Below are positions 5,851 to 56,304 of a DNA stretch of 64,000 nucleotides, piece after piece. The stretch is from Malacoraja senta (lineage: Eukaryota), in the NCBI GenBank assembly GCA_038087875.1, contig CM075993.1, forward strand, positions 9,550,001-9,614,000. Reading direction: 5' to 3'. Every line of letters begins with the position of its first letter. Within the stretch, counting starts at the first letter, position 1. A model generated the notes under the pieces. That model ran no database searches, had not been told where the DNA came from, and was given only the letters and a program-made list of their open reading frames with translations. The translations under genes were made by a program, and so were the position numbers.

Positions 5851-5904
5851 ATATTAGAATGTAACGTCGTGGGGAGGGGGGTGAAATATGAGATGTTAGC
5901 TAAA

Positions 5905-7692: not shown

Positions 7693-7944
7693 AGGGCCTG
7701 TCCCACTTGGGCGTCATTTGCGCGTCATGCAGATGGCGCGCAAAGATTTTCTACATGCCAAAATCCTGGGGCGCCATGCACGAATGTGCGTCACTGCCTA
7801 TGTCACCACCCACCATGCGCGCGTAATGCACACCATGCTCACGTAATGCGCACCATGCACGTGACACGTGCGCATCATGCGTCGTGACGCGTAAATGATG
7901 TAGCGTAAATGACGTGCAAATGGTGTCCAAGTGAGACAGGCCCT
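7693..7944. mobile_element. MITE, PIF/Harbinger-like (3-bp TSD)
   Basis: TIRs AGGGCCTGTCCCACTTGG / CCAAGTGAGACAGGCCCT; TSD GTA (7690-7692, 7945-7947); empty site in the paralog near 19458-19460. Confidence 0.85.
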
Positions 7945-8799: not shown

Positions 8800-8966
8800 G
8801 TGAGTTTCATTAATTGTTTTTTCTGCATTTACAGATGTTTGATAATTGTCCACATTTTCATAATTCTCTGAAAATACTAAAACTAATCAGAAACATCATT
8901 TCAGCTTCGGAAGGATAAGACAGAGACAGAGTACATGACAAGAAAACTGTGTTCTCTATTTTGAAG

Positions 8967-9106
8967 GTTGTGGTGAAGAATATAAGAACCACATGGTCCG
9001 CTTGTTGACCTACCTGCCAGGAACTCAACTACTGGGGATCCCTGCAGACCCACAGATCTTGTACAAAATTGGCCGAACACTTGGTCAGATTAACATAGCT
9101 CTGACA
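8967..9106 (+). pseudogene. hykk: hykk copy B, coding exon 2 (no downstream exons found)
   Basis: ag|..CGEEYKNHMVRLLTYLPGTQLLGIPADPQILYKIGRTLGQINIALT|gtaaat; 140 nt; homology to copy C ends near 9405. Confidence 0.85.
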
Positions 9107-9279
9107 GTAAATCCATTTATTCTACTTCCAGCATTCTCTGAATAAGCCGTGTCTGAAACCAGTTTGCTTGTGTGGTTCAAATTAAAGGGCCATCTTGTGG
9201 TAACAGATCAGAACTACTTTGCACCTTGAAACAATCAGTACATCTTGAAGCATTTTTTTTAAAGGATTCCCTCTTATTT

Positions 9280-9450
9280 ACACAAAAGGTCACAAATTGC
9301 TGGAGTCGCTCAGCAGATCAGGCAGCATCTTTAGAGAAGATAGAAAAGTGACGTTTTGGATCGAGACCCTTCTTCAGACTGATTATGGGGAGGAGGGGGG
9401 AGAAGATAGCTGGAAAAGGGGGAGAGACAGGACTAAGTGTGGCAGGTAAT
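9280..9450 (-). mobile_element. Penelope-like terminal repeat fragment
   Basis: tgctggagtcgctcagc...ggcagcatct...gacgttttggatcgagacccttcttcagactga; paralog at 18030-18150. Confidence 0.65.
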
Positions 9451-9954
9451 AGATGCCTGATGTTATGAAGAAGATATTGAGACAAGTTTTTGAGAAAGAC
9501 TGGATGGACAGCACTGACATTCCCTACCAATCGGGTGTCTTATTGTGTACCCAGACAATGGTGCAAACAATGGTCTATGACAATGGTCTGTTGCTGCCAC
9601 TGCACAATAATTCTAAGAGACAGAAAACAAGACTGTCGATAACTCCACAATATTGTTCATATGTTTTAATAGTCAAGTGTGAGGAAAATTACAGCATAAA
9701 ATTGAAACACAATTCACATGTTAGAATATTTATATTTTTATCTTTCAGGGTTTTGGGTCATAACACCAGGACCACTGCATCTCGTTAGGCTACCATATCC
9801 GCACAGTATCATATCATTGTATCATCCCTTCACCATATCCATCCCATGATCACATATGCCCCATTTACCATGTTCATCCGCTCAATATCTGCCCCATCAC
9901 CATATCTGTCCACAATTATATATTTTTTAAACATTTAAAATGCTGCAAATGATG

Positions 9955-10200
9955 CATGTGTATAAAATCATGAGAGGAATAAATTGGGTAGCTGCACAGA
10001 ATCTCTTGCCCAGAGTAGGGGAATCGCGGACCAGAGGATATAGGTTCAGGGTGAAGGGGGAAAGATTTAATAGGAATCTGTGGGATAACTTTTTCACACA
10101 AAGAGTGGTGGGTGTATGACACAAGCTACCAGAGGAGGTAGTTGAGGCTGGGACATGTTGGCCCGTGTGGGCCTGTTTCCACACTGTATCACTCTATGAT
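9955..10200 (+). mobile_element. Older CR1-type 3' fragment (paralog of 1845-2175)
   Basis: Inverted near-copy of 1845-2175 with an internal deletion. Confidence 0.6.
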
Positions 10201-10997
10201 TCTATGACACTAATTCTCACCAACTGTGGAGAGGGAAAAAGAGTTAACATTTCAGGTTGGTGATCTTTCGATAGAAATGGAAAAAGTGAAGTTGGAATAA
10301 GTTTTAGATTGCAGAGCAAGTCGGGAAGGATGGAAGACAGCAAGAAGTAAACAATGGAAGTGGTGATGGGGGTTGTTGGATGAGACTGGCAAAGGATAGT
10401 GCACAACAAAAGTGCCTGCATGGAGTTGAAGTGGAAGGTGATGAATGAACTCTGACATTACTTGGGGAAGGAAAAACGTGGCCAAATGGCAAAGAAGAAA
10501 AAATTCTCCTAACTGCTTTGCAATGTGTACATCGTATTTGAACTGGTCTTCAAAGAGCATTTCACAACAGATCCTTGAGAGATGATTCAGCTATTGACAA
10601 TGTAAATAACAGTGTAAATCAACATGTGGAGGAGTTTTGGTGCAATTTCAATCCCATTCATGTACAGATTGTAGATCATTTACAAACACAAACCTGACAG
10701 AAAATTACCCACTATGTAATCAGGAATGGTATGAGGTTTGGAGATTAGTTCCAAGATTTGGGTTCCAGTATGTGCAGGACAATCATACAGAGGATAGTGA
10801 GACTATTTACCAGGCATCACATCTCATGATGGTTGGCTGCACCATTTCAGGTCCACGCAGGGGAAGCTCTGGACTGGGGACTCAGTGATTCACACTTGGA
10901 CTGTTGATTCAGTTACAGTGGGAAAAGTGACAGAAAGGTGGCCAGCGAAAAACATAAACCAGTGAGCAGTGCTGAACAACTATCTACCCCTTTGTTG

Positions 10998-11232
10998 ATG
11001 CTCGGACTATCCTTGATTGAACTTTGCTGGCTTTACCTTGCACTAAACGTTATTCCCTTATCAAGTATCTATACACTGTAAATGGATCGATTGTAATCAT
11101 GTATTGTCTTTCTGCTGACTAGTTAGCATGCAACAAAAGCTTTTCACTGTACCTCGGTATAGGTGACAATAAACTAAACTAAACTAAACTAAATTAAACT
11201 GAACTATACTAAACCAAACCAAACTAAACTAA
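10998..11232 (+). mobile_element. LINE (Rex/L2-like) 3' end with (AAACT)n tail
   Basis: aaaagcttttcactgtacctcgg...gtgacaataaactaaact; same family on the minus strand at 40855-41050 and 51020-51260. Confidence 0.6.
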
Positions 11233-11379
11233 AGGATGCCAGTGAAAAATGGCTTAAAATCCATCTGGATATAATTTCAGATGGTAGGAATATTGCTCGA
11301 TTGTGTTTTAATCTTTCTTTCAAATATAGATATTGTGGGAAAGGCATTGATACTCCGGCACTGAGAACCAATGGAGGTT

Positions 11380-11855
11380 TCACAGAGTGAGGTAGGACTT
11401 GGCCGTCTCAAACCAAATCTTCTCCACTGCTTCTTTTCCTAGCTCCCAGAGTTGGTGCAAATGCTTCCAGCCAGTTTTTGATGAGATCTGTAGGTACTCT
11501 TCATTGTCTGGGTAACGCAGAATATTATATGTCCCGAAAACCAGCGACTGGGAAAACCTGCAAAGAACCAGCAAATACAAGGCATCCCTTTCCTGGAGAT
11601 TTAAAGGGATCACACTCTCGAAACCTGCGAGAATATGGCCTCCAACATGCAGGGGGTCTTCTCTGTCCAGCGTGAGATACATTATGCAGATGGCCAAGTC
11701 ATACACATAGTAACTACTAGCCGTTTCGCCAAAGTCCAGGATGCCAGAAATCTCCAGCTCCTGCTGCATGTGACCTGCTGCATTGGAGCAATCAGCTGAT
11801 GAATGAAGAAGCTGCACAAGAATGTTGGTGTGACTGAAGTCCCCGTGAATAATGC
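11380..11855 (-). CDS. hykk: hykk copy C, coding exon 4 (last)
   Basis: ccaacag|GC ATT ATT CAC GGG GAC: IIHGDFSHTNILV...GILDFGE...WFETAKSYLTL*; contains the HxDxxxxN and DFG motifs of APH/choline-kinase-fold kinases; 476 nt. Confidence 0.92.
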
Positions 11856-12429
11856 CTGTTGGACATACAAATGTTGCAACATTTTACCATCTATACATAA
11901 CTAAAACTATGATCTTGTTATCTTCTGGTTTGCACGGTCTTTCTATTTGCGCAAAAAAGGTACGCGATAGTGCTACGCACATCGTTCTCCTCTGCTGCGA
12001 GTGTACCGTTTCGTTCCAATCGGTGGCATAATGTAAAAGTTAGCAAGGTTTAAAAATCTTTAAAATGGCGCATGCGCAGATCGATCTCCTCTCCTGCCTG
12101 TCAGCGCCGCGCGTTAGTCTCTTCTCCTGTGTAATGAACCGGATTTGATAAAGGACCTCGAGGTTAATGAGCCATTAGGAGGTACTGACCATAACATGGT
12201 CAGGTTTAATCTACAATTGGAGAGGGAGAAGGGTAGATCAGAGGTGTCAGTGTTACAGTTGAATAAAGGGGACTATGGGGCCATGAGGGAGGAGCTGGCC
12301 AAGTTACAATTGGGGCACCTTTGTCGGGCCCGTCCCCCGGGAGCAGTGCCGAACCCCGGGGGTCGTGGCGGGGTAGTGTTCATCCGATGGCTGGTAGTGC
12401 TGGCAAAGTTAATATCATGGTCAGCCGGT

Positions 12430-13437
12430 GACACCTACTCCAGCTGGTTTGAGGTCGACCAGCTGCACTCCCTCACCTCTTCGGCCGTGGTCGATAAGTT
12501 AGGCCATCATTTTTGCACTTTTGGCACCCCGGCCAGCCTGCAGTCGGACAATGGCAGCCAATTCACGAGCTCCGAGTTTAAAGCTTTCGCATCCAGATGG
12601 AACTTCCGCCATTTCACCAGTAGCCCTGAATACCCGCAAAGCAACGGTCTGGCCGAGCGCGCCGTCCGCAGTGCAAAGAACTTGCTGGAACAATGTCGCT
12701 TGTCCAACTCCGACTTCTATCTGGCCCTCCTCAACCTCCGCAACATCTCCCGCGACCCTGCCATGGGCTCCCCTGCTCAGCGGCTCATGTCTCGCGCTAC
12801 CAGACCACCGATCCCGGTGGCCCAGCGCTCCCTCATCCCCTCTGTCCTCAAGCCTGCTGCTGTTCAGGAACGCATTGCCTTTAGGCACGATGTTCAGAAA
12901 CGTTCCCATGACAGGTCCTGCCACCCACTGCCGCGCCTCTTCCCCGGCCAGGTGGTCCGCATGCAGACCCCCTCCGGTCATTCAAAGCTCGCTACCATCG
13001 TCGGCTCTGCTGGGTCGCCCAGGTCCTATCTCGTCGACCATGCTGGAACCGTTTACCGACGGTCCCGCCAACACCTGCGGCTCGTCAATGAGCCGCGGCC
13101 GCGTGCCGCGGATCCTTTTGCTCCCCCACTGCAGTTTCAGCACCCGGGCGATGCTCTGCCTGCCACTCCTCGCATGCCACGATCTCTACCCTCTCAACTC
13201 CTTCCATCCCATCCTCCTCCGGCTAGTCCTCACTCGCCTGCCCGCGCGCTGCCCGCTGCTGAACCCGCATCTCCTGCTTTTTTGCCATTATCTTCTCCGT
13301 CCCCTCCGGTTTCCCCCTTTCCAGTTCGTCTGTCCTCACCTGTGCCACTTCTTCCTGCCGGAAGGGAGGATGTCGAGATGCGAACCCGGTCGGGACGTGT
13401 TGTCAAACCGCCTGTCCGCTACGGTGATTTTGTTTAA
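12430..13437 (+). mobile_element. Ty3/Gypsy integrase core and C-terminus
   Basis: DTYS..., SDNGSQF, SSPEYPQSNGLAERAVR (D,D,E triad), RSYLV, YRRSRQHLR, RTRSGRVVKPPVRY. Confidence 0.88.
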
Positions 13438-13701: not shown

Positions 13702-15344
13702 GGACACAAACAATCTTCCTGATATAGTAGTGGCCAGAGGATCTGGGGTGACGGAGGAACTGAAGGAAATCCACATTAGGCAGGAAATGGTGTTGGATAG
13801 ACTGATGGGACTGAAGGCTGATAAATCCCCAGGGCCTGATGGTCTGCATCCCAGGGTACTTAAGGAAGTGGCTCTAGAAATCGTGGATGCATTGGTGATA
13901 ATTTTCCAATAGACTCAGGATCAATTCCTTGACTAATCTTCTGGAATTCTTTGAAGATGTAACTAGGAAAATGGACAAGGGAGAGCCAGTGGATGTAGTG
14001 TACCTGGACTTTCAAAAAGCATTTGATAAGGTCCCACATAGGAGATTAGTGGGCAAAATTAGGGCACATGGTATTGGGGGTAGAGTGCTGACATGGATAG
14101 AGAATTGGTTGGCAGACAGGAAACAAAGAGTAGGGATTAACGGGTCCCTTTCAGAATGGTAGGCAGTAACTAGTGGGGTACCGCAAGGCTCGGTGCTGGG
14201 ACTGCAGCTATTTACAATATACATCAATGATTTGGAAGGGATTCAAAGTAACATTAGCAAATTTGCAGATGACACAAAGCTGGGTGGCAGTGTGAACTGT
14301 GAGGAGGATGCTATGAGAATGCAGGGTGACTTGGACAGGTTGGGGGAGTGGGCAGATGCATGGCAGATGAAGTTTAATGCGGATAAATGTGAGGTTATCC
14401 ACTTTGGTTGCAAAAACAGGAAGACAGATTACTATCTAAATGGCGTCAAGTTGGTAAAAGGGGAAGTACAACGGGATCTACGGGTCCTTGATCATCAGTC
14501 TATGAAAGTAAGCATGCAGGTACAGCAGGCAGTGAAGAAAGCGAATGGCATGTTGGCCTTTACAACAAGAGGAGTCGAGTAAAGGAGCAAAGAGGTCCTT
14601 CTGCAGTTGTACAGAGCCCTAGTGAGACCACACCTGGAGTATTGTGTGCAGTTTTGGTCCCCTAATTTGAGGAAGGACATTCTTGCTATTGAGGGAGTGC
14701 AGCGTAGGTTTACAAGGTTAATTCACGGGATGGTGGGACTGCCATATGCTATTAGAATGGAGCAGCTGGGCTTGTACACTCTGGAGTTTAGAAGGATGAG
14801 AGGGGATCTCATTGAAACGTATAAGTTGTTAAGGGTTTGGACACGCTAGAGGCAGGAAACATGTTTCCAGATGTTGGGGCAGTCCAGAACCAGGGGCCAC
14901 AGTTTAAGAATAAGGAGAAAGCCATTTAGAACGGAGACGAGGAAACACTTTTTCTCACAGAGAGTGGTGAGTCTGTGGAATTCTCTGCCTCAGAGGGCGG
15001 TGGAGGCAGGTTCTCTGGATGCGTTCAAGAGAGAGCTAGATAGGGCTCTTAAAAATAGCGGAGTCAGGTGATATGGGGAGAAGGCAGGAACGGGGTACTG
15101 ATTGCGGATGATCAGCCATGATCACATTGAATGGCGGTGCTGGCTCGAAGGGCCGAATGGCCTACTCCTGCACCTATTGTCTATTGTCCTGTCACTCCCC
15201 GGGTACGGTCCGCCTCATCCTGCTCCATCGCGTCTTTACTGGAGCTGAGGGATGCCCTGGATGGCCGGCGGAGGTCTCTAACCGGACGCAATTTCGGAGG
15301 GACTGAAAATGGCCCGGCCCAGCCCAGCTCAGCCCGGCCCGGCT

Positions 15345-15888
15345 CTCTCCCTCCTTTCCCCCCCACCTACAAACCCCTCTCCCCCCACAACCACCCCCGC
15401 CCACACACCCCTCTCCGCCAACAACCACCCCCGTCCACACAACACCTCCCTCCACAACCCATCGCCCACACCCATCCCCCCACAACCCCCCCGCCCACTC
15501 ACACCTCCCCTCACAACCCCCGCCCACACCCCCGCCCACACCACCCTCCCCGCACAAACCCCCCCACACCCATCCCTCCGACAACCCCCCCACCCACATA
15601 CCCCTCCCCCCGACAACCCCCCTCCGCCCATACACACCCACTGCCCACAAATACCTCCCTCCCCCACACACACACCCTCCCCCCTAACATATCCCTGCTC
15701 CTCCACTCCCACACCCCTCCCACCCACATACACACCTCCCCTCCCACCCCAGACCACACACCCCTACACCACCCTCTCCCCCCCTCCTACACCTCCCCGC
15801 CCACACACAACCTCCCTCCCCTCCTACCCCACAACTCCCCTGCCACACACCCCACTTCCCTCCCCCATCCCCTCCTCCCCTCCCACAC
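15345..15888. repeat. C/A-rich low-complexity tract within the Helitron
   Basis: Runs of ccccaca/ccctcccc with almost no G on the + strand. Confidence 0.9.
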
Positions 15889-16323
15889 ATGAAGAGGAGG
15901 GGGAGGGAGTGCTCGTGGATGAGGGAAAATGAGCCGTGCCTGCGCAGTTAGGGGCTATGGGTGAGTGGTGGAATATTGCGTTGGAGGAACGGGTTGCGTT
16001 GGGGGAAGGGGTGAGTGGTGGAATATTGCGTTGGGGAATGGGTTGCGTTGGGTGACCAGGGCTCCCGTGTGACTGAGACCCAACGGGTCCCACTTTGTCT
16101 AGTTCATCCCTAAAAGGCAATATGTACTCCTCAGTGTACCAGGGTTGATCCTCTGGTTGGATTTTAATGATAGAGTGAGGAATATGCCAGACCATGAGGT
16201 TACAAAGTATAGGCACAAAATGTTGGAGTAACTCAGCCAGACAGGCAGCATCTCTTCTCAACACTCTATCTGATCTGAAATGTCATTCTGTTACCCTCAT
16301 GATCAAGAAAGATAGGCACTTAC

Positions 16324-18002: not shown

Positions 18003-18321
18003 TTAGTGACTGATTATGGAGAGGCTTTCTTCTCCCCCTGCCTCTCCATAATCAGTCTGAAGAAGGGTCTTGATCCGAAACGTCACCTTTCCATCTTCTC
18101 TAAAGATGCTGCCTGATCTGCTGAGCGACTCCAGCAATTTGTGACCCTTTGTGTAAATAAGTAGGAAGCCTTTAAAAAAAAACTGCTTCAAAATGTTCTG
18201 ATTTCAAGATGCAAAGTAGTTCTGTCACCACAAGATGGTGCTTTAATTTGAACCACACAAGCAAACTGGTTTCAGACACGGCTTATTCAGAGAATGCTGG
18301 AACTAGAATAAATGGACTTAC

Positions 18322-18461
18322 TGTCAGAGCTTTGTTAATCTGACCAAGTGTTCGGCCAATTTTGTACAAGATCTGTGGGTCTGCAGGGATCTCCAGTAGT
18401 TGAGTTCCTGGCAGGTAGGTCAACAAGCGGACCATGTAGTTCTTATATTCTTCACCACAAC
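18322..18461 (-). CDS. hykk: hykk copy C, coding exon 2
   Basis: ttaag|..CGEEYKNYMVRLLTYLPGTQLLEIPADPQILYKIGRTLGQINKALT|gtaagt; 140 nt; contains the VRLLTYLPG motif of HYKK. Confidence 0.92.
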
Positions 18462-18628
18462 CTTAAAAATAAAGAACACAGTTTTCTTGTCATGTACTCT
18501 GTCTCTGTCTTATCCTTCCGAAGCTGAAAATATGTTTCTGATTAGTTTTAATATTTTCAGAGAATTATGAAAATGTGGACAATTGTCAAACATCTGTAAA
18601 TGCAGAAAAAACAATTAATGAAACTCAC

Positions 18629-18965
18629 TGATTGTCTCCAGGGACATAATCTTGCCATCAATGGTTGTGATTGGTGTGGTTGTAGGAAAACCTTTCTGGT
18701 TTAGGAACATCATGACTCGCGTTTGTGCTTCCACCAAATCAGCATCTTGGCTCTCGACAGTGTTCAGAACCTTGAGGACGTAGCTCTTCCCGTGATCTCC
18801 GCCTTCCTGGGTCTCGCACACCAGGACATGGAAGTTCTGGTCCATGTAACTGGGCAGTGGTTTGACTTTTGAAACCTTCAGACCGTACAACCGTCCGACC
18901 AACTCCACCACCTGGGCCTCACTCAGTGAGGGTCTGATTACAGCAGCTTCATCCGAGTCAGACAT
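18629..18965 (-). CDS. hykk: hykk copy C, coding exon 1
   Basis: ttcag|ATG MSDSDEAAVIRPSLSEAQ...GLKVSKVKPLPSYMDQNFHV...YVLKV...ETI|gtgagt; 337 nt; the four exons sum to 1137 nt = 378 aa plus stop. Confidence 0.92.
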
Positions 18966-20428
18966 CTGAAAGACAGGAGAAGAATGAAACACATTAAATA
19001 AGTGAATGTTGCACCCTGTGGAAACTGCAGTATGACCAAGGTTAGGGTAGCTGTGCAGCACAACAACCTTTAGTCAGTCACTGACAAACATCAATGTCCC
19101 TGATTGTTTTGGGATTGACACACACTACATGGTTCTTGATATTGAAAATTAAATAAAGGATTAAATAGCATGTAGGTTTACTTGTATTAGTGTTATTGCA
19201 TTTGTATATCAATGTTTGGAGAACGTATTGTTATTGATGATAAGAAACTAGAAAGTGCGCACAATTCCAAGGGTCAAAATCTGTATAAAAAGTTAACAGT
19301 TCTGATTGTAATTTCGGAGTAAAGTGACTGGGACAGTGCTGCTCTCCTTGTGTACAAGTAAATAAAGTGTGATGGCTAACCTTTAGTTTCACTATACGGG
19401 AGAACGACTGAACCTATCGCTGGAATGCAGATTTCTTCCTGTGTAGAGTAGTTGAAGTACGCATCACATTCGTTGCCGAGAGAGATATAGGGGGCAATTG
19501 CGGCGCCAGACAGGGAATAGCATTTGTGTCGGGTGGTTTGGTTAAGGATCAAGGTCCTGTCAGAGCCGCGAGCGTTCTGTGGGCTGGGTCCAGTGTGAGT
19601 GTGAATGAATATGATTGTAACTAAAATGGCCCAGACTCCCCAAGGGGACGCTAACAGCTACAAACAGAAATTATGGAGTTTAGAATTTCGAGACAAATTC
19701 TAATATTGTAGTATTAATTAGTTATGATGAATTGGTAGTGTTTCATGCTTTTTATTCAGACACAGTGTTTGTGTGGTATCGGAGTATTGAAGGGTCTGCA
19801 GACTTTCACTAAAAACTGAACATATGAGAACTAACAAAACAAAACAAAAACTATGGAATTCAACTAACAACTTTCACACAGAACACAGTGAACACACTGC
19901 TGAGAAAACACACTTCCTTATATGTGTGGGATGATTAGGATGTATCAAGTGCTTCCATGTCATAAAGGGATTTTCACAGTTGTGTTTGGGATCGTGTTGC
20001 CTGTGGCCTTGAGTTTGCACGCTGTTCTTTACCACTGTGTTCAACTGACATATTTTCAGACATTTAACCACTTTTTGAGTGAACTAACCCCCATCAATTC
20101 TCTGCAAACTCCTACAATTTGTAATTTGCAGATCGATCTGCCCCATCTGTCCCCCTAGCTGAACATGAAGCACGGGAACCCCTTCAACAGCGTACACGTC
20201 ATTCCGCAGGGCACAGTTTTTATAATCCAAGTCCTATAATAAATCAGAATTTGGAATTTGAGGTTCTAACTATGGCATTATTAATATTTTACATTTTCAC
20301 AGGCTCAGTCACAGTCATAGCATGGAAAGAGGCCCTTCAGCCCAATTCATCTCTGCTGACCAAGGTATCTTTTGCTCGTCCCATTGTCATCACCATGCAT
20401 TCTTTCCCCAGACACGCTTTATTTACTT

Positions 20429-21085
20429 CCCTTCCCTCCCATACCACCCCCTCCCCGGGTACTTTCCCTTGCAACCGCAAGAGATGCAACACTTGTCCCT
20501 TCACCTCCCCCCTCGACTCCATTCAAGGACCCAAGCAGTCGTTCCAGGTGCGACAGAGGTTCACCTGCATCTCCTCCAACCTCATCTATTGCATCCGCTG
20601 CTCTAGATGCCAGCTGATCTACATCGGTGAGACCAAGCGGAGGCTTGGCGATCGTTTCGCCGAACACCTCCGGTCGGTCCGCAATAACCAACCTGACCTC
20701 CCGGTGGCTCAGCACTTCAACTCCCCCTCCCATTCCGTATCTGACCTCTCTGTCCTGGGTCTCCTCCATGGCCACAGCGAGCAACACCGTAAATTGGAGG
20801 AAATGCACCTCATATTCCGCTTGGGTAGTCTACATCCTGGGGGCTTGAACATTGAATTCTCCCAATTCTGCTAGCCCTTGCTGTCCCCTCCCCTTCATCA
20901 GCCCTCTCGTTGTCTCCTCCCCTCCCCCAGCCCTCGGGCTTCTCCTCCGCCTTTTTCCTTTTTTCCTTTCTTCTCCCCACCCCCTATCAGTCTGAAGAAG
21001 GGTTTCGGCCCGAAACATTGCCTATTTCCTTCACTCCATAGATGCTGCTGCACCCGCTGAGTTTCTCCAGCATTTTTGTGTACCT
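20429..21085 (+). mobile_element. 5'-truncated Penelope-like retroelement (GIY-YIG endonuclease plus terminal repeat)
   Basis: NLIYCIRCSRCQLIYIGETKRRLGDRFAEH; 15-bp TSD acgcttta(t/g)ttactt at 20414-20428 and 21086-21100; empty site at 6669-6683. Confidence 0.92.
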
Positions 21086-21599
21086 ACGCTTTAGTTACTT
21101 GTGCCCAAGGTGAGCAGCGCTGTCCTTTCCGCACTGCTCTAAAATTCTGCTCGCAAACATCTGCCTTTACACAGATATTGACCGATTGAAATTTTGTCCA
21201 CTTTCTAATTCCTTATCACCAATCACAATAGGTTCTTAAAAGCATTAATATCTTTAAAAAAAAACTACATTCAGAGTCCGAAGAAGTGTCTCGACCCGAA
21301 ACGTCACCTTTTTCTTCGTTCCATAGATGCTGCCTCACCCGTTAAGTTTCTCCGGCGTTTTTGTCTACCTTCGATTTTTCCAGCATCTGCAGTTCTTTCT
21401 TAAACATGCTATTCAATTCTCTATTTGTATTTACTCTTAGTAAAGAGAACTCTCTTGGACTTATCATGTGTTGTTACAGCTGGCTGCGCATCAAAGGATG
21501 ACTCTCAAAAACCTTGTACTGTATGGTTCAACACATGTTCAATATGTTTAAAGTCAGGCATCCCCACATCAACCAAAACTAATTTCAAAATCAGCATGT

Positions 21600-21850
21600 C
21601 AAAAAACAGGCCATTGTTAGCCGTAGCTAGGTGAGAATGAAAGCTGGTGTGATTTGGGTGGGGGAGGGATGGAGAGAGAGGGAATGCAGGGGTTACTTGA
21701 AGTACCACTGGGCTGTAAGCTGCCCAAGCAAAATATGAGATGCTGTTCCTCCAATTTGCGTTTAGCCTCACTCTGACAATGGAGGAGACCTAGTACAGAA
21801 AGGTCTGTGTGGTAATGGGAAGGAGAATTAAAGTGCTTAGCAACTGGCAA
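21600..21850 (-). mobile_element. Penelope-like fragment (paralog of 5905-6170)
   Basis: LPVAKHFNSPSHYHTDLSVLGLLHCQSEAKRKLEEQHLIFCLGSLQP. Confidence 0.75.
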
Positions 21851-21962
21851 TTTAGCTAACATCTCATATTTCACCCCGTTCCCTTCCAACCATATCCCTC
21901 CCCACGACGTTACATTCTAATATACTCACACTTACTTTATTAGCCAAGTATGTTTCCCCTAA

Positions 21963-22060
21963 GGTACACAAAAATGCTGGAGAAACTCAGCGGGTGCAGC
22001 AGCATCTATGGAGCGAAGGAAATAGGCAACGTTTCGGGCCGAAACCCTTCTTCAGACCCT
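21963..22060 (-). mobile_element. 98-bp Penelope terminal-repeat insertion carrying a minimal hammerhead motif
   Basis: 14-bp TSD tatgtttcccctaa (21949-21962, 22061-22074); minus strand GGGT-CTGAAGA-A-GGGT-TTCG-GCCC-GAAA-CGTT-GCCT. Confidence 0.8.
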
Positions 22061-23088
22061 TATGTTTCCCCTAAAGAGGGTGGTGTTGCCTTACGATGGA
22101 TTCCGGTGGTCTGTAGCACAGAATGTGTAATCTTCACAGTCAGACAGGTGTAGAAATCTGCAGTCCTACTCTGAGCGCAAATCAACATGCACTCAAAACC
22201 TGTAAATACCACAGTAATGTGAATAAATATACTCAGTACATCTGTTACCACCCACATGAAAAAATGCTGTTTAACCTGCTGAATGCTTCAAGCATGTCTG
22301 GTTTTGTAACGATAGATCTTAAACACATGCATTTTACTGTCATAACATACCAGCTCTGTCCAATTGAAGGTACAGTTGCCTAGAATGTATGTTTGGTTGG
22401 GGTTGCTAAATTAGCTATTTAGCCGTATCTGAGTGTTGTTCTCTGCTTCAACTCAGGTTGGTACTGTGACTGCAGAGGAATTTCCACAGCATACATTTCA
22501 TTTTTACAGAGCAGCCCTCTGGGCAGACCCGAGCTAATGAATCTAGGAGACAAGAATAAGAGCACAGCACCAACAAATCAGGTACTAACACCTGGGATGA
22601 AACAGACTGTTCAACACCAGAACAACTTCAGGGAGTTATTTTGACCGCCAGCAAACAGTCAGAAACGTCCAATTTAAAGAACAGGTTTCTCCAACATCTT
22701 CAGTTGCCACACAGTGTGCTTCATCAGGGAGTGTTGTATAGATAAATAATGCAGAAAAAAAGGGTGTGCAGAATGATAAAAGTTGTATAAACAGGCCCCA
22801 GGTCTGTATTTTAATTCAGTGTTACAAAGCTGAGGACTCACAACCAAACGTTTACGTGAAGCATTCTTTCCTTGGCCATCACCGCACCATAAACAAATAG
22901 AAATAGGGAAGATGGAAGGGGTGGAAGATAAATGTACAGAGGAGGGGAAAGGAACAGAGTGATGGGTGGTGGGAGAAATATGTCTGTACTTTCAGGTTTT
23001 GTAACACTGAAAGAATTAGAATACATAACATTTCAATTTTCCCTCCCTCTCTCCCCTTCCGTCGCTCCCTCCAGCTTTACATTCTACT

Positions 23089-28982: not shown

Positions 28983-31900
28983 GCTTGCTTTCAACAACTG
29001 CTGCACACATACAGCCAGATTATGATGCTTCTTTCCGTTTCCATTTAGATAATAATCTGGTTTTTATAATCAACATTTAGCAACGTTAAATATTTGCCAT
29101 GCATTTTCCCAATCACACAACTAGTCTATATCACTTTGAGCCTCTTTGCATCCAACTCACGGCTTATGTGCCCTCTCCAGCTTAGAACTGTCGGTAAACT
29201 TGAATTGAATTCCCTCATCCAAACCATTGATGTTCAGTATGTGATACTGTAGTGTAAACACTAATCACTGCAGAAAGATGGCATCTGCAGAGTTCGAGTT
29301 ATGAGGAGAGACTGGATAGGTGTTTTTTTCTCTCTAGAGGCTGAGGAAGCTGAGGGGAGACCTTGCAGAGATTTTTAGAGTAATGTGAGGCATAGCTGAG
29401 TTACTCCAGCATTTTGTGTCTATCCTTGCTTAGTTGTTGGCCATGAACTGTGTACAGGGCTAGAAAGAAACTACAGTGAAAGACTAATAATCCACTCGCT
29501 GACTATTTGTGTATCCTGATGATTTAACATCTGGCTCATCAGATGATATTTGCCACTCTCCTTCCCACACAGTGAGATGGCAGTTTGCATGTTCCCTTTA
29601 AATATCCCCAGTTTACTGGAAAGTACATTATAGTATCATGCACTATCTATATAATTAAAAGTCTAAACTTGACCACTTCCTGTTTGCACTGTATACCGAT
29701 TTTAGTAAAAACGCTACCACTTACGGCTGTGATTTTTGGTCATCTTACTCAGAGTCCTCCTCCAGCTGTCAGGGCCAGAGGATTTTTCTCATCGATGAAA
29801 AATTAAAGACTTATTAATGTTTTAAAAATGTTGAGATTCTCTCTCCTGTCAATCACACCATGAAGGCCACGCCCCCTCCAATGGCAGGGGAGGGACTATA
29901 AAACCCAGCAGTGTGGACATGCCTCAGTCTCTGCAAGATGGGGGAGTGAGAGGTCACGACTCTCAGTCTGAGCTGTGAATAACACTGAACACATGTCTAC
30001 TAAACTGTGAGTGTAGTTTTACTGACCTGTGAGTGCCCTTAATGTGGTTTGAAAATGAAGTTTGAAAATGAAAATGTGGTTGGTTTGAAAATGAAAATGT
30101 GGTTGGTATGAAAATGAAAATGTGGTTGGTTTGAAAATGAAAATGTGGTTGGTTTGAAAAAGAAAATGTGGTTGGTTTGAAAATGAAAATGTGGTTGGTT
30201 TGAAAATGCGGTTGGTTTAAAAATGTGTTTGGTTTGAAAATGAAAATGTGGTTTGAAAATCTATAATATTAAAAGTCTAAATTTGACCACTTCCTGTTTG
30301 CACTGTATATTGATTTTACAAAAAATGCTACCACATACAGCTGCGATTTTTGGCCATCTTACTCAGAGTCCTCCTCCAGCTGTCAGGGCCAGAGGATTTT
30401 TCCCATCGATGAAAAATAAAAGACTTATTAATGTTTAAAAAATGTTAAGATTCTCTCTCCTGTCAATCATGCCAGGAAGGGTACGCCCCTCCCGGTGAGA
30501 GGTGGGAGGGACTATAAAATCCGGAAATGTGGACGTGCCTCAGTCTCTGCAAGATGGGGGAGCAAGAGATCACGATTCTCAGTCTGAGCTGTGAATAACA
30601 CTGAACACATGTCTACTAAACTGAGTGTGGTTATACTGACCTGTGAGTGCCCTTAATGCAGTTTGGAAATGAAGTTTGAAAATGAAAATGTGGTTTGTTT
30701 GAAAATGTGGTTGGTTTGAAAATGAAAATGTGGTTGGTTTGAAAATGAAAATGTGGTTGGTTTGAAAATAAAATGTGTTTGGTTTGAAAATGAAAATGTG
30801 GTTGGTTTGAAACTGAAAATGTGGTTGGTTTGAAAATGTGGTTGGTTTGAAAATGTGGTTGGTTTAAAAATGTGGTTGGTTTGAAAATGAAAATGTGGTT
30901 GGTTTAAAAATGAAAATGTGGTTTGATAATGAAGTTTGACAATGAAAATGTGGTTTGGAAATGAAGTTTGAAAATGAAAATGTGGTTGGTTTTAAACTGT
31001 GGTTGGTTTGAAAATATGGTTGGTTTGAAAATGTGGTTTGTTTGAAAATGTGGTTTCAAAATCTATTTAATTAAAAGTCTAAACTTGACCACTTCCTGTT
31101 TGCACTGTATATTGATTTTAGAAAAAACGCTACCACTTACGGCTGTGATATTTGGCCATCTTACTCAGAGTCCCCCTCCAGATGTCAGGGCCAAGGGATT
31201 TTTTCCATCGATGAAAAGTAAAAGACTTATTAATTTTTTTAAATGTTGAGATTCTCTCTCCTGTCAATCACGCCATGAAGGTCACGCCCCTTCCGGTGGG
31301 AGGGGGAGGGACTATATAACCCGGAAGTGTGGACGTGCCTCAGTCTCTTTAAGATGGGAGAGCGAGAGGTAACGACTCTGAGCTGTGAATAACACTGAAC
31401 ACTGAACACATGTCTACTAAACTGTGAGGGTGGTTTTACTGACCTGTGAGTGCCCTTAATGTGGTTTGAAAATGAATCTTGAAAATGAAAATATGATTGG
31501 TTTGAAAATGAAAATGCGGTTGGTTTGAAAATGAATATGTGGTTCGTTTGAAAATGTGGTTTGAAAATGAAAATGTGGTTTGAAAATGAAAATGTGGTTG
31601 GTTTTAAAATGTGGTTGTTTGAAAATGTGGTTGGTTCAAAAATGAAAATGTGGTTTGAAAATGAAAATGTGGTTGGTTTGAAACGGGTTAGTTTGAAAAT
31701 GTGGTTGGTTTAAAAATGAAAATGTGGTTGGATTGAAAATGTGGTTGGTTTTCAAATATGGTTGGTTTGAAAATGTGGTTGGTTTGAAACTGGTTGGAAA
31801 ATGAAAATGTGGTTGTTTTGAAAATGTGGTTGGTTTAAAAATGTGTTTGGTTTGAAGATGTGGTTGGTTTGAAAATGTGGTTGGTTTGAAAATGTGGTTG

Positions 31901-34900
31901 GTTTGAAAATTAAAGTGTGGTTGGTTTGAAATGAAAATGTGGTTGGTTTGAAAATGAAAATGTGGTTGGATTGAAAATGAAAATGTGGATGGTTTGAAAA
32001 TGTGTTTGGTTTTAAAATGTGCTTGGTTTGAAAATGTGGTTGGTATAAAAATGAAAATGTGGTTTGATAATGAAGTTTGAAAATGAAAATGTGGTTGGAT
32101 TGAAACTGGTTGATTTGAATATGTGGTTGGTTTGAAAATGTGGTTTGTTTGAAATTGAAAATGTGGTTTCAAAATCTATATAATTAAAAATCTAAACTTG
32201 AACACTTCCTGTTTGCACTGTATATTGATTTTAGAAAAAACGCTACCACTTACGGCTGTGATTTTTGGCCATCTTACTCAGAGTCCCCTTCCAGATGTCA
32301 GGGCCAGGGGATTTTTTCCATCGATGAAAAATATAAGACTTATTAATGTTTTAAAAATGTTGAGATTCTCTCTCCTGTCAATCACGCCATGAAGGTCACG
32401 CCCCTTCCGGTGGGAGGGGGAGGGACTATATAACCCGCAAGTGTGGACGTGCCTCAGTTTCTTTAATGATGGGAGAGCGAGAGGTAACGACTGTCTGAGC
32501 TGTGAATAACACTGAACACTGAACACATGTCTACTAAACTGTGAGGGCGGTTTTACTGACCTGTGAGTGCCCTTAATGTGGTTTGAAAATGAATCTTGAA
32601 AATGAAAATGTGGTTGGTTTGAAAATGAAAATGTGGTTGGTTTGAAAATGAAAATGTGGTTCGTTTGAAAATGTGGTTTGAAAATGAAGATGTGGTTGGT
32701 TTTAAAATGTGGTTGTTTTGAAAATGTGGTTGGTTTAAAAATGAAAATGTGGTTTGAAAATGAAGTTTGAAAATGAAAATGTGGTTGGTTTGAAAATATG
32801 GTTGGTTTGAAAATGTGGTTGGTTTGAAACTGGTAGGAAAATGAAAATGTGGTTGTTTTGAAAATGTGGTTGGTTTGAAAATGTGGTTGGTTTGAAGAAG
32901 TGGTTGGTTTGAAAATGAAAATGTGGTTGGACTGAAAATGTGGTTGGTTTGAAAATATGGTTGGTTTGAAAATGTGGTTGGTTTCAAACTGGTTGGAAAA
33001 TGAAAATGTAGTTGTTTTGAAAATGTGGTTGGTTTGAAGATGTGGTTGGTTTGAAAATGTGGTTGGTTTGAAAATGAAAGTGTGGTTGGTTTGAAATGAA
33101 AATCTGGTTGGTTTGAAAATGAAAATGTGCTTGGATTGAAAATGAAAATGTGGTTGGTTTTAAAATGTGGTTGGTTTTAAAATGTGGTTGGTTTGAAAAT
33201 GCGGTTGGTATAAAAATGAAAATGTGGTTTGATAATGAAGTTTGAAAATGAAAATGTGGTTGGTTTGAAACTGTGGTTGGTTTGAAAATGTGGTTGGTTT
33301 GAAATTGAAAATGTGGTTTCAAAGTCTATATAATTAAAAATCTAAACTTGAACACTTCCTGTTTGCACTGTATATTGATTTTAGAAAAAACGCTACCACT
33401 TACGGCTGGGATTTTTGGCCATCTTACTCAGAGTCCCCTTCCAGATGTCAGGGCCGGTTTTTTTTTTCATCGATGAAAAATATAAGACTTATTAATGTTT
33501 TAAAAATGTTGAGATTCTCTCAGCCTGTCAATCACGCCATGAAGGTCACGCCCCTTCCGGTGGGAGGGGGAGGGACTATATAACCCGGAAGTGTGGACGT
33601 GCCTCAGTCTCTTTAAGATGGGAGAGCGAGAGGTAACGACTCTGTCTGAGCTGTGAATAACACTGAACACTGAACACATGTCTACTAAACTGTGAGGGCG
33701 GTTTTACTGACCTGTGAGTGCCCTTAATGTGGTTTGAAAATGAATCTTGAAAATGAAAATGTGGTTGGTTTGAAAATGAAAATGTGGTTTGTTTGAAAAT
33801 GAAAATGTGGTTCGTTTGAAAATGTGGTTTGAAAATGAAAATGTGGTTGGTTTTAAAATGTGGTTGTTTTGAAAATGTGGTTGGTTTAAAAATGAAAATG
33901 TGGTTTGAAAATGAAGTTTGAAAATGAAAATGTGGTTGGTTTGAAAATGTGGTTGGTTTGAAAATATGGTTGGTTTGAAAATGTGGATGGTTTGAAAATG
34001 TGGTTGGTTTGAAGATGTGGTTGGTTTGAAAATGAAAATGTGGTTGGACTGAAAATGTGGTTGGTTTGAAAATATGGTTGGTTTGAAAATGTGGTTGGTT
34101 TGAAACTGGTTGGAAAATGAAAATGTAGTTTTGAAAATGTGGTTGGTTTGAAGATGTGGTTGGTTTGAAAATGTGGTTGGTTTGAAAATGAAAGTGTGGT
34201 TGGTTTGAAATGAAAATCTGGTTGGTTTGAAAATGAAAATGTGGTTGGATTGAAAATGAAAATGTGGTTGGTTTTAAAATGTGGTTGGTTTGAAAATGCG
34301 GTTGGTATAAAAATGAAAATGTGGTTTGATAATGAAGTTTGAAAATGAAAATGTGGTTGGTTTGAAAATGTGGTTGGTTTGAAGAAGTGGTTGGTTTGAA
34401 AATGAAAATGTGGTTGGACTGAAAATGTGGTTGGTATGAAAATATGGTTGGTTTGAAAATGTGGTTGGTTTGAAACTGGTTGGAAAATGAAAATGTAGTT
34501 GTTTTGAAAATGTGGTTGGTTTGAAGATGTGGTTGGTTTGAAAATGTGGTTGGTTTGAAACTGAAAGTGTGGTTGGTTTGAAATGAAAATCTGGTTGGTT
34601 TGAAAATGAAAATGTGGATGGATTGAAAATGAAAATGTGGTTGGTTTTAAAATGTGGTTGGTTTGAAAATGCGGTTGGTATAAAAATGAAAATGTGGTTT
34701 GATAATGAAGTTTGAAAATGAAAATGTGGTTGGTTTGAAACTGTGGTTGGTTTGAAAATGTGGTTGGTTTGAAAATGTGGTTGGTTTGAAATTGAAAATG
34801 TGGTTTCAAAGTCTATATAATTAAAAATCTAAACTTGAACACTTCCTGTTTGCACTGTATATTGATTTTAGAAAAAACGCTACCACTTACGGCTGTGATT

Positions 34901-36167
34901 TTTGGCCATCTTACTCAGAGTCCCCTTCCAGATGTCAGGGCCGGGTTATTTTTTCCATCGATGAAAAATATAAGACTTATTAATGTTTTAAAAATGTTGA
35001 GATTCTCTCAGCCTGTCAATCACGCCATGAAGGTCACGCCCCTTCCGGTGGGAGGGGGAGGGACTATATAACCCGGAAGTGTGGACGTGCCTCAGTCTCT
35101 TTAAGATGGGAGAGCGAGAGGTAACGACTCTGTCTGAGCTGTGAATAACACTGAACACTGAACACATGTCTACTAAACTGTGAGGGCGGTTTTACTGACC
35201 TGTGAGTGCCCTTAATGTGGTTTGAAAATGAATCTTGAAAATGAAAATGTGGTTGGTTTGAAAATGAAAATGTGGTTCGTTTGAAAATGAAAATGTGGTT
35301 CATTTGAAAATGTGGTTTGAAAATGAAAATGTGGTTGGTTTTAAAATGTGGCTGTTTTGAAAATGTGGTTGGTTTAAAAATGAAAATGTGGTTTGAAAAT
35401 GAAGTTTGAAAATGAAAATGTGGTTGGTTTGAAAATGTGGTTGGTTTGAAAATATGGTTGGTTTGAAAATGTGGATGGTTTGAAAATGTGGTTGGTTTGA
35501 AGATGTGGTTGGTTTGAAAATGAAAATGTGGTTGGACTGAAAATGTGGTTGGTTTGAAAATATGGTTGGTTTGAAAATGTGGTTGGTTTGAAACTGGTTG
35601 GAAAATGAAAATGTAGTTGTTTTGAAAATGTGGTTGGTTTGAAGATGTGGTTGGTTTGAAAATGTGGTTGGTTTGAAACTGAAAGTGTGGTTGGTTTGAA
35701 ATGAAAATCTGGTTGGTTTGAAAATGAAAATGTGGTTGGATTGAAAATGAAAATGTGGTTGGTTTTAAAATGTGGTTGGTTTTAAAATGTGGTTGGTTTG
35801 AAAAAGCGGTTGGTATAAAAATGAAAATGTGGTTTGATAATGAAGTTTGAAAATGAAAATGTGGTTGGTTTGAAACTGTGGTTGGTTTGAAAATGTGGTT
35901 GGTTTGAAAATGTGGTTGGTTTGAAATTGAAAATGTGGTTTCAAAGTCTATATAATTAAAAATCTAAACTTGAACACTTCCTGTTTGCACTGTATATTGA
36001 TTGTAGAAAAAACGCTACCACTTACGGCTGTGATTTTTGGCCATCGTACTCAGAGTCCTCCTCCAACTGTCAGGGCCAGAGGATTTCTCCCATCGATGAA
36101 AAATAAAAGACTTATTAAAGTTTTAAAGATGTTGAGATTCTCTCTCTTGTCTATCACGCCATGAAGG

Positions 36168-36342
36168 CCACGCCCCTTCCGGTGGGAGGGGAGGGGCTAT
36201 AAAACTCGGAAGTGTGGACGTGCCTCAGTCTCTGCAAGATGGGGGAGTAAGAGGTCACGATTCTCAGACTGAGCTGTGAATCACACTGCACACTGAACAC
36301 ATGTCTACTAAACTGTGAGTGTGGGTTTACTGACCTGTGAGT
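36168..36342 (+). promoter_or_regulatory. Representative promoter, first exon and splice-donor cassette of a Helitron head
   Basis: CCACGCCCC 36168-36176, CTTCCGG 36176-36182, TATAAAA 36198-36204, CGGAAGT 36207-36213, Inr-like TCAGTCT (A at 36227), CAAGATGG, GTGAGT at 36315 and 36337. Motif-based only. Confidence 0.5.
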
Positions 36343-37972
36343 GCCCTTAATGTGGTTTGAAAATGAAGTCTGAAAATGAAAATGTGGTTGGTTTGAAAAT
36401 GTGGTTGATTTGAAAATGAAAATGTGGTTGGTTTGAAAATGAAAATGTGGTTTGTTTGTAAATGTGGTTGGTTTGAAAATGTGGTTTGTTTGAAAATGTG
36501 GTTGGTTTTAAACTGGTTGGACAATGAAAATGTGTTGGTGTGAAAATGAGGTTGGTTTGGTAATGTGGTTGGTTTGAAAATGAAAATGTTGGTTTGAAAA
36601 TGAAAATGTGGTTGGTTTGAAAATGAAAATGTGGTTGGTTTGAAAATGAAAATGTGGTTGGTTTCAAAATGTGGTTGGTTTGAAAATGTGGTTGGTTTGA
36701 AACTGTGGTTGGTTTGAAACTGGTTGGAAAATGAAAATGTGGTTGTTTTGAAAATGTGGTTGGTTTGAGAATGTGGTTGGTTTGAAAATGTGGTTGGTTT
36801 GAAAATGTGGTCAGAAAATGAAAATGTAGTTGGTTTGAAAATGAAAATATATTTGGTTTGAAAATGAAAATGTGGTTGGTTTGAAAATGTGGTTGGTTTT
36901 AAAATGTGGTTGGTTTGAAAATGTGGTAAGTTTAAAAATGAAAGTGTGGTTTGAAAATGTAGTTTGAAAATGAAAATGTGGTTTGAAAATGAAGATTGAA
37001 AAAGAAAATGTGGTTGGTTTGTAAATGTGGTTGGCTTGAAAATGTGGTTGGTTTGAAAATGTGATTGGTTTGAAAATGAAAATGTGGTTGGTTTGAAAAT
37101 GAAAATGTGGTTGGTTTGAAAATGTCGTTGGTTTGAAAATGAAAATGTGGTTGGTTTGAAAATGAAAATGTGGTTGGGTTGAAAATTAAAATGTGGTTGG
37201 TTTGGAAATGAAAATGTGGTTTGAAAATGAAGTTTGAACATGAAAATGAGATTTGAAAATGAAGTTTGAAAATGAAAATGTGGTTGATTTGAAACTGGTT
37301 GGTTTGAAAATGTGGTTTGAAAATGTGTTTGGTTTGAAAATGAAAATGTGGTTTGAAAATCTATATAATTAAAAGTCTAAACTTTACCACTTCCTGTTTG
37401 CACTGTATATTGATTTTAGAAAGAACGCTACCACTTACGGCTGTGATTTTTGGCCATCTTACTCAGTCCCCCTCCAGCTGTCAGGACCAGAGGATTTTCC
37501 CATCGATGAAATATTAAAAAACGTATTAATGTTTTTAAAATGTTGAAATTCTCTCTCCTGACAATCACGCCATGGCGACGCCCCTTCCGGTGGGAGGGCG
37601 GGGGGAATATAAAATCCGGAAGTGTGAATGTGCCTCAGTCTGCAAGATGGGGAGGGAGAGGTCACGACTCTCAATCTGAGCTGTGAATCACACTGAACAC
37701 TGAACACATGTCTACTAAACTGTGATTGTGGGTTTACTGACCTGTCAGAAAATGAAAATGTGGTTTGAAAATGAAGTTTGAAAATGAAAATGTAGTTGGT
37801 TTGAAACTGCTTGGTTTGAAACTGTGGTTGGTTTGAAATTGTGGTTGGTTTGAAAATGTGGTTGGTTTGAAAATGTGGTAGAAATGAAAATGTGTTTTGA
37901 AAATCTATATAATTAAAAGTCTAATCTTGACCACTTCCTGTTTGCGCTGTATATTGATTTTAGAAAAAACGG

Positions 37973-38240
37973 ATTTGGTGGCCTTGCACCCTGCTTGAAA
38001 TGGTATGAAACTGCACTTGAATTTGGTGGCCTTGCACCCTGCTTGAAATGGTATAATACTGCACTTGAATTTGGTGGCCTTCCACCCTGCTTGAAATGCT
38101 ATGAAACTCCATATGAATTTGGTGGCCTTGCACCCTGCTTGAAATGGTATGAAACTGCATTTGAATTTGGTGGCTTGCACCCTTTTTGAAATGGTATGAA
38201 ACTGCATTTGAATTTGGTGGCCTTGCACCCTGCTTGAAAT
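37973..38240. repeat. 48-bp tandem repeat
   Basis: atttggtggccttgcaccctgcttgaaatggtatgaaactgcacttga, ~5.5 copies; reverse-complement variant of 3266-3525. Confidence 0.9.
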
Positions 38241-38505
38241 CACGTCCACGCCGGTCATCGATCACTCGTTCACACTAGTTCTATGTTATCCCACTTTCTT
38301 ATCCACTCCCTACACACTCGGGGCAATTTACAGAGGCCAATTAACCTGAAAACCCGCTCGTCTTTGGGAAGAACCCAGAGCACCCGAAAACCCATGTGGT
38401 CACAGGGAGAACATACAAACTCCACATGACAAGCACTTGAGGTCAGGATGGAACTGGGTCACTGGCACTGTGAGGTAGCAGCACTACCAACTGCACCACT
38501 GTGCT
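38241..38505 (-). mobile_element. HE1-type SINE
   Basis: Reverse-complement homology to 42640-42900. Confidence 0.7.
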
Positions 38506-39615: not shown

Positions 39616-39837
39616 AGGTTCACTGTCAAATGCTGCAAGCTCTTTGAAAGAACTATCTGATCATTCCCACTCTTGAACCTTCTCCAAATATCACTGTAAA
39701 TATTAATGTTGATATGCATCAGAAAGAAATACACGCTGTTACGTAGCTGATGGTAGAAGCTTAGGATATCTCAAACTGTTTTACAGACAACAGCCAATAA
39801 TGTACTTCTTAAGTGTGGTTATTTTTGTAGAATGGGG

Positions 39838-40342
39838 TGTGTCGCTGTGAGTGTGTCACGGTGTCACTGTGAGTGTGTCACTGAGTGTGTCACTGAGTGT
39901 GTCACTGTGAGTGTGTCACTGCGTGTGTCACTGCATGTATCACTGTGAGTGTGTCACTGCATGAGCGTCACCGTGAGTGTGTCACTGTGAGTGTATCGCT
40001 GTGAGTGTGTCACTGTGAATGTGTCACTGAGTGTCACTGAGTGTGTCACCGTGAGTGTGTCACTGTGAGTGTGTCACAGTGAGTGTGTCACTGAGTGTAT
40101 CACTGTGAGTGTGTCACTGCGTGGATCACTGTGAGTGTGCCACTGTGAATGTGTCACTGAGTGTGTCACTGTGAGTGTGTCTGTGAGTGTGTCACTGTGA
40201 GTGTGTCACTGTGTGTCACTGTGAGTGTATCACTGTAAGTGTGTCTCTGTGAGTGTGTCACTGAGTGTGTCACTGGGTGGTGTGTCACTGTGAGGGTATC
40301 ACTGGGTGGTGTGTCACTGTGAGTGTGTCAATGTGAGTGTGT
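39838..40342. repeat. (GTGTCACTGTGAGT)n-type minisatellite
   Basis: ~35 degenerate units of 12-14 bp. Confidence 0.92.
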
Positions 40343-40617
40343 CTTTGGGATTAATACCAGGTGCACGTCCCCACTGTATCGGCGGGCGGGCAGGTTGCAA
40401 TCGGATGTCCTCACTCCACCAGTTATCTCTCTGATCAAACGCTCCCTACTGCACGCTCACGAATGTAACATGAGACCACGTGCTTTAACTGAACCGAATA
40501 AACCAGTTAGCTGGTTACTGTTATGCTGCCTTTAGTAGAGTTACTTCTCTTTTTCTCTTAGATCAGCCTGTGGTGTCTTAAAAATCACTCTGCTGAGCCA
40601 GAAGCAGCTAACCTGAA

Positions 40618-52981: not shown

Positions 52982-53181
52982 NNNNNNNNNNNNNNNNNNN
53001 NNNNNNNNNNNNNNNNNNNNNNNNNNNNNNNNNNNNNNNNNNNNNNNNNNNNNNNNNNNNNNNNNNNNNNNNNNNNNNNNNNNNNNNNNNNNNNNNNNNN
53101 NNNNNNNNNNNNNNNNNNNNNNNNNNNNNNNNNNNNNNNNNNNNNNNNNNNNNNNNNNNNNNNNNNNNNNNNNNNNNNNNN
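52982..53181. other. Assembly gap (200 N)
   Basis: Run of N. Confidence 1.
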
Positions 53182-56018: not shown

Positions 56019-56300
56019 GTGGGACATGCCAGCGCCCGCCGGGGGCTCCCCGTTGAAACATTAGGACCTGGAGCGGGGCCGTACATCGCCCGGCGTGGCC
56101 TTAACGGCCGTGGGACTTACCATTGCCCGCCTGGGGGCTTTAATGGAACACAGGGGAGAGAAAAGACTTTGCCTTCCATCACAGTGAGGAGGAGATTCAC
56201 TGTGATGGATGTTTGTGTGAATTGAATTGTTTGTGTTTCTTGTAGGAATTGTTTATTTTTGTATGGCTGTAGAAACAGAGTGTCGTTTGAGCCTCATTAA
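56019..56300 (+). mobile_element. GC-rich repeat fragment, family of 27900-28180
   Basis: Shared motifs; ccatcacagtgagga...cactgtgatggatg hairpin. Confidence 0.55.
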
Positions 56301-56304
56301 GGTC

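Follow-up and report, generated by a model that had tools for sequence, protein, structure and literature searches.

Within the 64,000-nucleotide window analysed here (the whole stretch of Malacoraja senta DNA at positions 9,550,001 to 9,614,000 of contig CM075993.1, assembly GCA_038087875.1, forward strand), the 5' terminal segment of a Helitron transposon, hereafter the head, is repeated in a tandem array at 29646-38240. With rather more belief than doubt, this array is read as a dead, non-autonomous element of the Helitron1 type, belonging to a high-copy skate family and expanded in place. The reading is carried by the phase of the inner junctions, by the divergence of the central units and by the structure of the 3' end.

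As given in the original prediction, nine heads in the same orientation were found, all on the forward strand, with starts at 29646, 30260, 31062, 32175, 33325, 34812, 35947, 37360 and 37904 (H1 to H9); a regular expression recovered eight of them, and the remaining head, at 30260 (H2), reads TCTATAATAT. The length of H1-H8 is 385-392 bp and that of H9 is 68 bp. Pairwise identity among the eight long heads was 88.7-99.2%, the outer heads being about 10% apart. TCTAT is the start of all nine heads and of both heads of a second element in the window (element A, described below), and the base preceding TC is A at six of the nine heads, among them H1, for which A|TC had been predicted, and G at H5-H7. 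The spacers (158-1096 bp) are composed of 13-, 17- and 23-bp variants of a single minisatellite; unit length varies from 544 to 1487 bp and the array totals 8.6 kb. From 5' to 3', it consists of H1 (29646-30030, 385 bp; the outer 5' end, with a left flank unrelated to the 5' flank of element A), spacer 1 (30031-30259, 229 bp), H2 (30260-30644, 385 bp), spacer 2 (30645-31061, 417 bp), H3 (31062-31447), spacer 3 (31448-32174, 727 bp), unit 4 (32175-33324; H4, 32175-32564, and spacer 4), unit 5 (33325-34811; H5, 33325-33715, and spacer 5), unit 6 (34812-35946; H6, 34812-35203, and spacer 6), H7 (35947-36338), spacer 7 (36339-37359, 1021 bp), H8 with spacer 8 (37360-37903; head 37360-37745, spacer 158 bp), H9 (37904-37971) and a 48-bp tandem block (37972-38240, 5.6 copies), whose homologue in element A lies at 3257-3527. 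Thus only head and spacer are reiterated and the 48-bp block is present once, at the end, also in accordance with the prediction. Long open frames rich in N, Q, P, H and F within the array were considered as genes and rejected as translations of the minisatellite.

The identity of the family was established from element A (2962-4706, reverse strand), a two-headed element consisting of an outer head (A1, from 4706), a 26-bp minisatellite (3871-4314), an inner head (A2, 3528-3845), the 48-bp block and a 295-bp 3' part. Canonical Helitron1 elements have a TC 5' end and a hairpin about 10 nt before a 3' CTRR. The homology of H1 and A1 begins at TC, within different flanks, and the 3' end of element A carries a hairpin with a 7-bp stem (2973-2989) and CTAG|T 11 nt further on; a second copy of this terminus (16043-16102, forward strand, 87% over 62 nt) ends with CTAG|T in another flank. 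A precedes TC at H1 and A1, and T follows CTAG at the two 3' ends; insertion of Helitrons between A and T is also stated in PMC11934779. The array heads are 86.9-91.0% identical to A1 and 84.4-92.6% identical to A2, and full heads matched the element A heads with BLAST (basic local alignment search tool) E values of <1e-85, which agrees with the predicted homology to the 5' end of a two-headed Helitron. In four of four sequencing runs (three organisms) the head stacked contigs, with a summed depth of 1e4-1e6 that is not a copy number. In run X20 the summed contig depth of the head was 2e5-1e6 against 27 for a single-copy flank contig, again not a true copy number, and since head depth lies far above flank depth the family is dispersed and of very high copy. 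The family is a non-autonomous Helitron1 (HLE1) with a TC 5' end, a hairpin and CTAG 3' end, and dispersed high-copy members, and the predicted Helitron identity is thereby supported. Rfam returned no matches, and exact-pattern scans gave 0 loci in metagenome contigs (two patterns), genome contigs and viral contigs.

Element A had been called complete. Both termini are present; the inner junction, though, reads T|TC, and a paralogous site at 22492, which reads CA|TA at the 5' junction, matches the 5' flank and not the 3' flank, so that a clean single insertion of element A is not proven. A rearrangement breakpoint may lie at element A, or the element may combine two insertions as a chimera. 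Its 5' end coincides with the end of the duplicated segment of the window (4706/4707, paralog 22492). At 15190-16102 the same Helitron 3' terminus is joined to a C-rich degenerate repeat body without a head of this family; this element is probably a member of a sister non-autonomous family. The 13/17/23-bp minisatellite (within 30031-38240) and the 26-bp minisatellite (within 3257-4314) have a core word in common, and the end of the 26-bp array of element A resembles the start of the 48-bp unit, which suggests that the family's internal repeats are all related to one another.

No match to the 295-bp 3' part of element A was found in or beside the array, and the 3' hairpin and CTAG are absent from it, as the prediction held. 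The sequence past 38243 aligns with other copies in the window of what is presumed to be a short interspersed nuclear element (SINE; 38244-38505, reverse strand), and in this copy the tail and some 45 nt at the 3' end are missing. CTAG|T at 38275-38279 was considered as the 3' end of the array and rejected, because it (CTAG, 38275-38278) is SINE sequence, with CTAG at that place in two of five other aligned SINE copies of the window, and because the preceding hairpin amounts to only -3.5 kcal/mol versus -11.6 kcal/mol at the end of element A. The word CACTA in both flanks was likewise rejected as a target duplication and ascribed to chance, as it is 5 bp long and its right copy lies within the SINE. 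With no match to the 3' part of element A, and with CTAG belonging to the SINE, the array is a truncated Helitron derivative and not an intact element. As the SINE is cut short where it meets the 48-bp block, the simplest reading is that one deletion would have taken both the Helitron terminator and the SINE end, fusing the block to the SINE.

All eight inner junctions are in the same rare phase, AAT-GTG[G/T]TTT[G/C]AAA[A/G]|TC, with the short 13-bp variant just before TC. Of the 157 AAAA|T sites in spacers 1, 2, 3, 7 and 8, which form the non-redundant set, 10 belong to this class, and under random site choice its use by four lineages (the junctions before H3-H7 counted as one) has a chance of about 3e-4 to 2e-5. 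The shared phase therefore argues for one founding junction copied by descent, and the founding event was probably a single self-insertion at A|T. The heads were also compared with those of element A. H1-H8 have four states in common against both A1 and A2, and H9 stands apart from every one of H1-H8 at two positions: T22, which it shares with A1 and A2, and G43, which it shares with A2. Minority states common to H1-H8 at 29810, 29917 and 29922, where about 87-90% of the X20 summed contig depth reads G (among the matches listed, 40 of 124), mark a subfamily rather than the locus, since A1 has them too.

The central units were expanded later. H3-H6 form a clade with support of 100/99, and whole-unit divergence is graded (0.71% for units 5 and 6, 1.61% for units 4 and 6, 4.55% for units 3 and 4), which calls for three or more separate duplications. 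Of the 15 sites diagnostic for H4-H6, H7 carries the central state at both of those in the first 60 columns (2/2) and at none of those that follow (0/13; Fisher p 0.0095), and is thus a recombinant with a central-type start and an edge-type body, the crossover lying between alignment columns 28 and 115. H3 is complementary, with its first 28 columns edge-type and its body central-type (central states 0/2, then 10/13; p 0.095). The duplicated unit therefore begins within one head and ends within the following one, and re-initiation at TC would not produce a unit that starts inside a head. Two spacer-end variants (found by motif counts at the 3' end of spacer 2) are confined to spacers 2-6, one unit beyond the clade of head bodies, pointing to a further crossover inside a spacer, and spacer variants are common to adjacent units only. 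Spacer 5 contains an internal duplication of about 370 bp (a repeat of 373-bp period, 97%). On these sequence grounds the later growth is attributed to unequal exchange by the host, a mechanism that had been proposed in the original prediction and that holds among the central units. The prediction had also named the units at 33325 and 34812 as sharing diagnostic variants while the edge units diverge; the variants are there, but the clade consists of four units. Of the proposed higher-order satellite, units 3-6 (95-99%) and the 373-bp repeat of spacer 5 do act as higher-order repeats, multimers being more alike than monomers in these only, but with units of 544-1487 bp there is no long homogeneous array with a regular period, and no spread beyond the locus is shown. 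The term overstates a single 8.6-kb locus whose satellite status is not shown; the array is read as a neutral compound tandem repeat.

Taken in order, the proposed history would begin with the insertion of a family member at an A|T site within the minisatellite of another copy, followed by a transposition that started at the outer TC and stopped at the first terminator, giving a two-headed element like element A. A route of this kind, in which self-insertion yields extra 5' ends and transposition proceeds from the outermost one, has been described for Fusarium elements (PMC5148889). H9 and the 48-bp block would represent the inner element, and H1-H8 would descend from the outer head. The single head-minisatellite-head junction would then have been copied, most plausibly by tandem duplication through host recombination within a short period, into five older lineages about 10% apart (H1, H2, the central ancestor, the H7 body and H8). 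Subsequent unequal exchanges, whose breakpoints lie within a head and within spacers, took one unit to four copies on three separate occasions, and slippage altered the spacer sizes; a deletion, as suggested by the junction, would finally have taken the 3' terminator and the end of the neighbouring SINE. Each head is 4-6% from the array consensus, and the left flank differs from that of two other organisms at 33/463 and 31/463 sites; if rates were alike, the old units would predate the split from those organisms and the central expansion would be mostly or wholly later, with the reservation that the heads are CpG-rich.

Several observations weigh against this reading. The junction class was defined after the data had been seen, and a target preference would yield the same result. 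The inner junction of element A itself is not of the A|TC type, and H1-H8 are joined as a single clade with support of only 83/89 to 90/85. In 19 X19 contigs minisatellite-like letters precede head position 29654 with a different junction (agreement 0.64), and such joins may arise repeatedly elsewhere. The five older lineages form a star with no supported inner branch. T113, found in H1, H2 and H7, conflicts with a 7-bp duplication common to the contiguous heads H3-H8, and two other sites conflict as well. The chimerism of H3 is not significant at the p value given above, and that of H7 is read from two sites. No Helitron, helicase or PIF1 family of Pfam was found among the 189 frames scanned, and no RepHel partner was found; nearly all of these frames came from the 358 frames of at least 55 amino acids outside repeats, mostly beyond 16 kb, with array-internal frames excluded. 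Finally, among the matches listed for the left flank and H1 there was no empty-site joint and no piece spanning the flank-head junction, which carries no weight either way.

The early stage can also be explained by a single event, in which RepHel rolled on a terminator-less circle of head and minisatellite and the resulting concatemer was inserted, units 3-6 being later host duplications. A star of equally old lineages is what such a one-shot concatemer predicts; each of the five has 8-12 private changes, with at most one change shared per grouping, and in a tree of the heads clades based on position were neither shown nor rejected (p value of the approximately unbiased test 0.2), the H3-H6 clade being recovered. 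The one shared junction and the precise A|TC of the outer end would also be expected, and the concatemer model of Xiong, Dooner and Du 2016, as reviewed in PMC12628747, predicts several 5' ends with one 3' end. The five older lineages fit the single age and the phase with the 5' end expected of a rolling-circle concatemer, whereas units 3-6 do not, and their out-of-phase, graded divergence could not be produced in this way. The 7-bp duplication of H3-H8 and two changes common to H7 and H8 (columns 343 and 386) suggest some neighbour-to-neighbour history, and are taken as a hint of stepwise growth. This explanation is rated below quick duplications by the host, as possible but rather unlikely. 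Somewhat more doubtful still is a family-wide habit driven by RepHel, in which such terminator-less circles would roll and insert as concatemers at many loci, to be homogenised afterwards by host recombination into higher-order repeats of kilobase size.

Serial self-insertion, in which each head would come from a different dispersed copy and one head would be added per round, was the main idea of the original prediction (repeated re-initiation or self-insertion at AT). It would account for older heads about 10% apart, near their distance to A1 (87-90%), for A|TC at six of the nine junctions and for the different minisatellite-head join in the X19 contigs. Independent insertions, however, should mostly have landed in the common AAAA|T sites of the 17- and 23-mers, and all four lineages use the 13-mer class; moreover, H1-H8 share their four states against A1 and A2, and no stranded 3' ends were left. 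With eight of eight inner junctions in one rare phase, this part of the prediction was not upheld, and serial self-insertion is considered improbable. That the array is partly an assembly artefact, such as haplotypes or noisy reads placed in tandem, is very improbable: units 5 and 6 are 99.3% alike and the array is known here from the assembly alone, but most heads are 2-11% apart with structured shared variants, and units 5 and 6 differ at 8 of 1131 aligned sites, against 0/466 and 1/461 for the flank compared with two runs of organism E. A tandem haplotype error is unlikely, though conceivable for units 5 and 6.

Under the preferred reading, a Helitron expanded in place, the array works like known multi-5'-end Helitron arrays and extends the plant and fungal layout to a cartilaginous fish. 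Plant arrays of truncated Helitrons (Xiong, Dooner and Du 2016; PMC12628747, PMC6591975, PMC5148889) likewise have several 5' ends and at most one 3' end in tandem, multiple 5' ends with a single 3' end being attributed to Xiong et al. 2016 in PMC12628747 and PMC6591975, and range from several to several hundred units. The skate locus differs from the plant arrays, as far as the accessible text describes them, in lying near hydroxylysine-kinase-like genes, in having a minisatellite in each unit and a deleted terminator, and in that its younger units, not being in phase with TC, came from recombination. The FoHelis of Fusarium oxysporum (PMC5148889) also have extra 5' termini with one 3' terminus, an arrangement ascribed there to self-insertion, with excision then starting at the outermost 5' end; those duplications are typically <200 bp in non-canonical Helitrons, in contrast to the nine skate units of 0.5-1.5 kb in a family with canonical TC/CTAG ends. 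Helitron-derived tandem arrays with minisatellites inside the elements are found in another vertebrate, Xenopus laevis (PMC12001565; monomers of 121-1996 nt, 2-7 repeats), but 39 of the 43 arrays consist of 166-bp minisatellites internal to a Helitron2 family, and the accessible text describes no repeated 5' head. In Hydractinia (PMC11934779) a 372-bp Helitron-like unit tied to a minisatellite (HSymSHlR and HSymSR) is locally amplified; there it occupies 26% of the genome, is subtelomeric and is not called a 5' terminus in the accessible text, compared with one 8.6-kb locus in the skate. The central repeats DINE-TR1 and Cg170 (PMC12628747, PMC9659126) resemble the array as expanding internal repeats of Helitrons or Helentrons, with one-sided element sequence forms, and amplify the internal repeat alone, while the skate unit includes the terminal head. 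Composite transposition and the general context are treated in PMC4224331, PMC9659126 and bioRxiv 10.64898/2026.07.30.741882. A literature search, judged by its listings, found no report of such arrays in skates, sharks or cartilaginous fish, Repbase, most subscription papers and supplements (e.g. table S3 of PMC12001565) lying outside its scope.

Here the letters alone suffice to put in order the stages by which a Helitron became a compound tandem repeat: founding junction, old burst, out-of-phase duplications and terminator loss. A single locus of this kind is a curiosity. If many loci were alike, skate genomes could test a rolling-circle against a recombination origin of transposon-derived satellites, and if the RepHel-driven habit were true, skates would provide vertebrates with a dated series of stages leading from a transposon to a satellite.

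The rest of the window is largely made up of long interspersed nuclear elements (LINEs), SINEs and other repeats. An exon at 11383-11883 (reverse strand) matches the Pfam domain APH; among named proteins it is closest to hydroxylysine kinase-like proteins of Rhinoraja longicauda (83%; three closer hits lack names), then to those of other rays and sharks. Inverted segmental duplications of the hydroxylysine-kinase-like gene (89-97%) connect 3-2448 with 9678-11661 and 4706-9410 with 18024-22492; the proteins of the exon frames at 18618-19073 (reverse) and 8355-8810 (forward) are 96% alike, and those at 11383-11883 (reverse) and 3-281 (forward) 95%. Between the exon copy at 8355 and the inversion point, near 9.4-9.7 kb, a downstream exon is missing. 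In an intron of the kinase gene, an open frame of 439 codons at 12118-13437 (forward), in which Pfam recognises an integrase core (rve), is likely a fragment of a long terminal repeat retrotransposon. A weak GIY-YIG match below the curated cut-off at 20125-20874 (forward) presumably marks a Penelope-like fragment. Beyond the array, an unrelated 14/26-bp minisatellite lies at 39837-40343, a 200-N assembly gap at 52982-53181, 15 kb past the array, and, at 56221-59728 (forward), a LINE that is AT-rich and frameshifted and has domains for endonuclease and reverse transcriptase.

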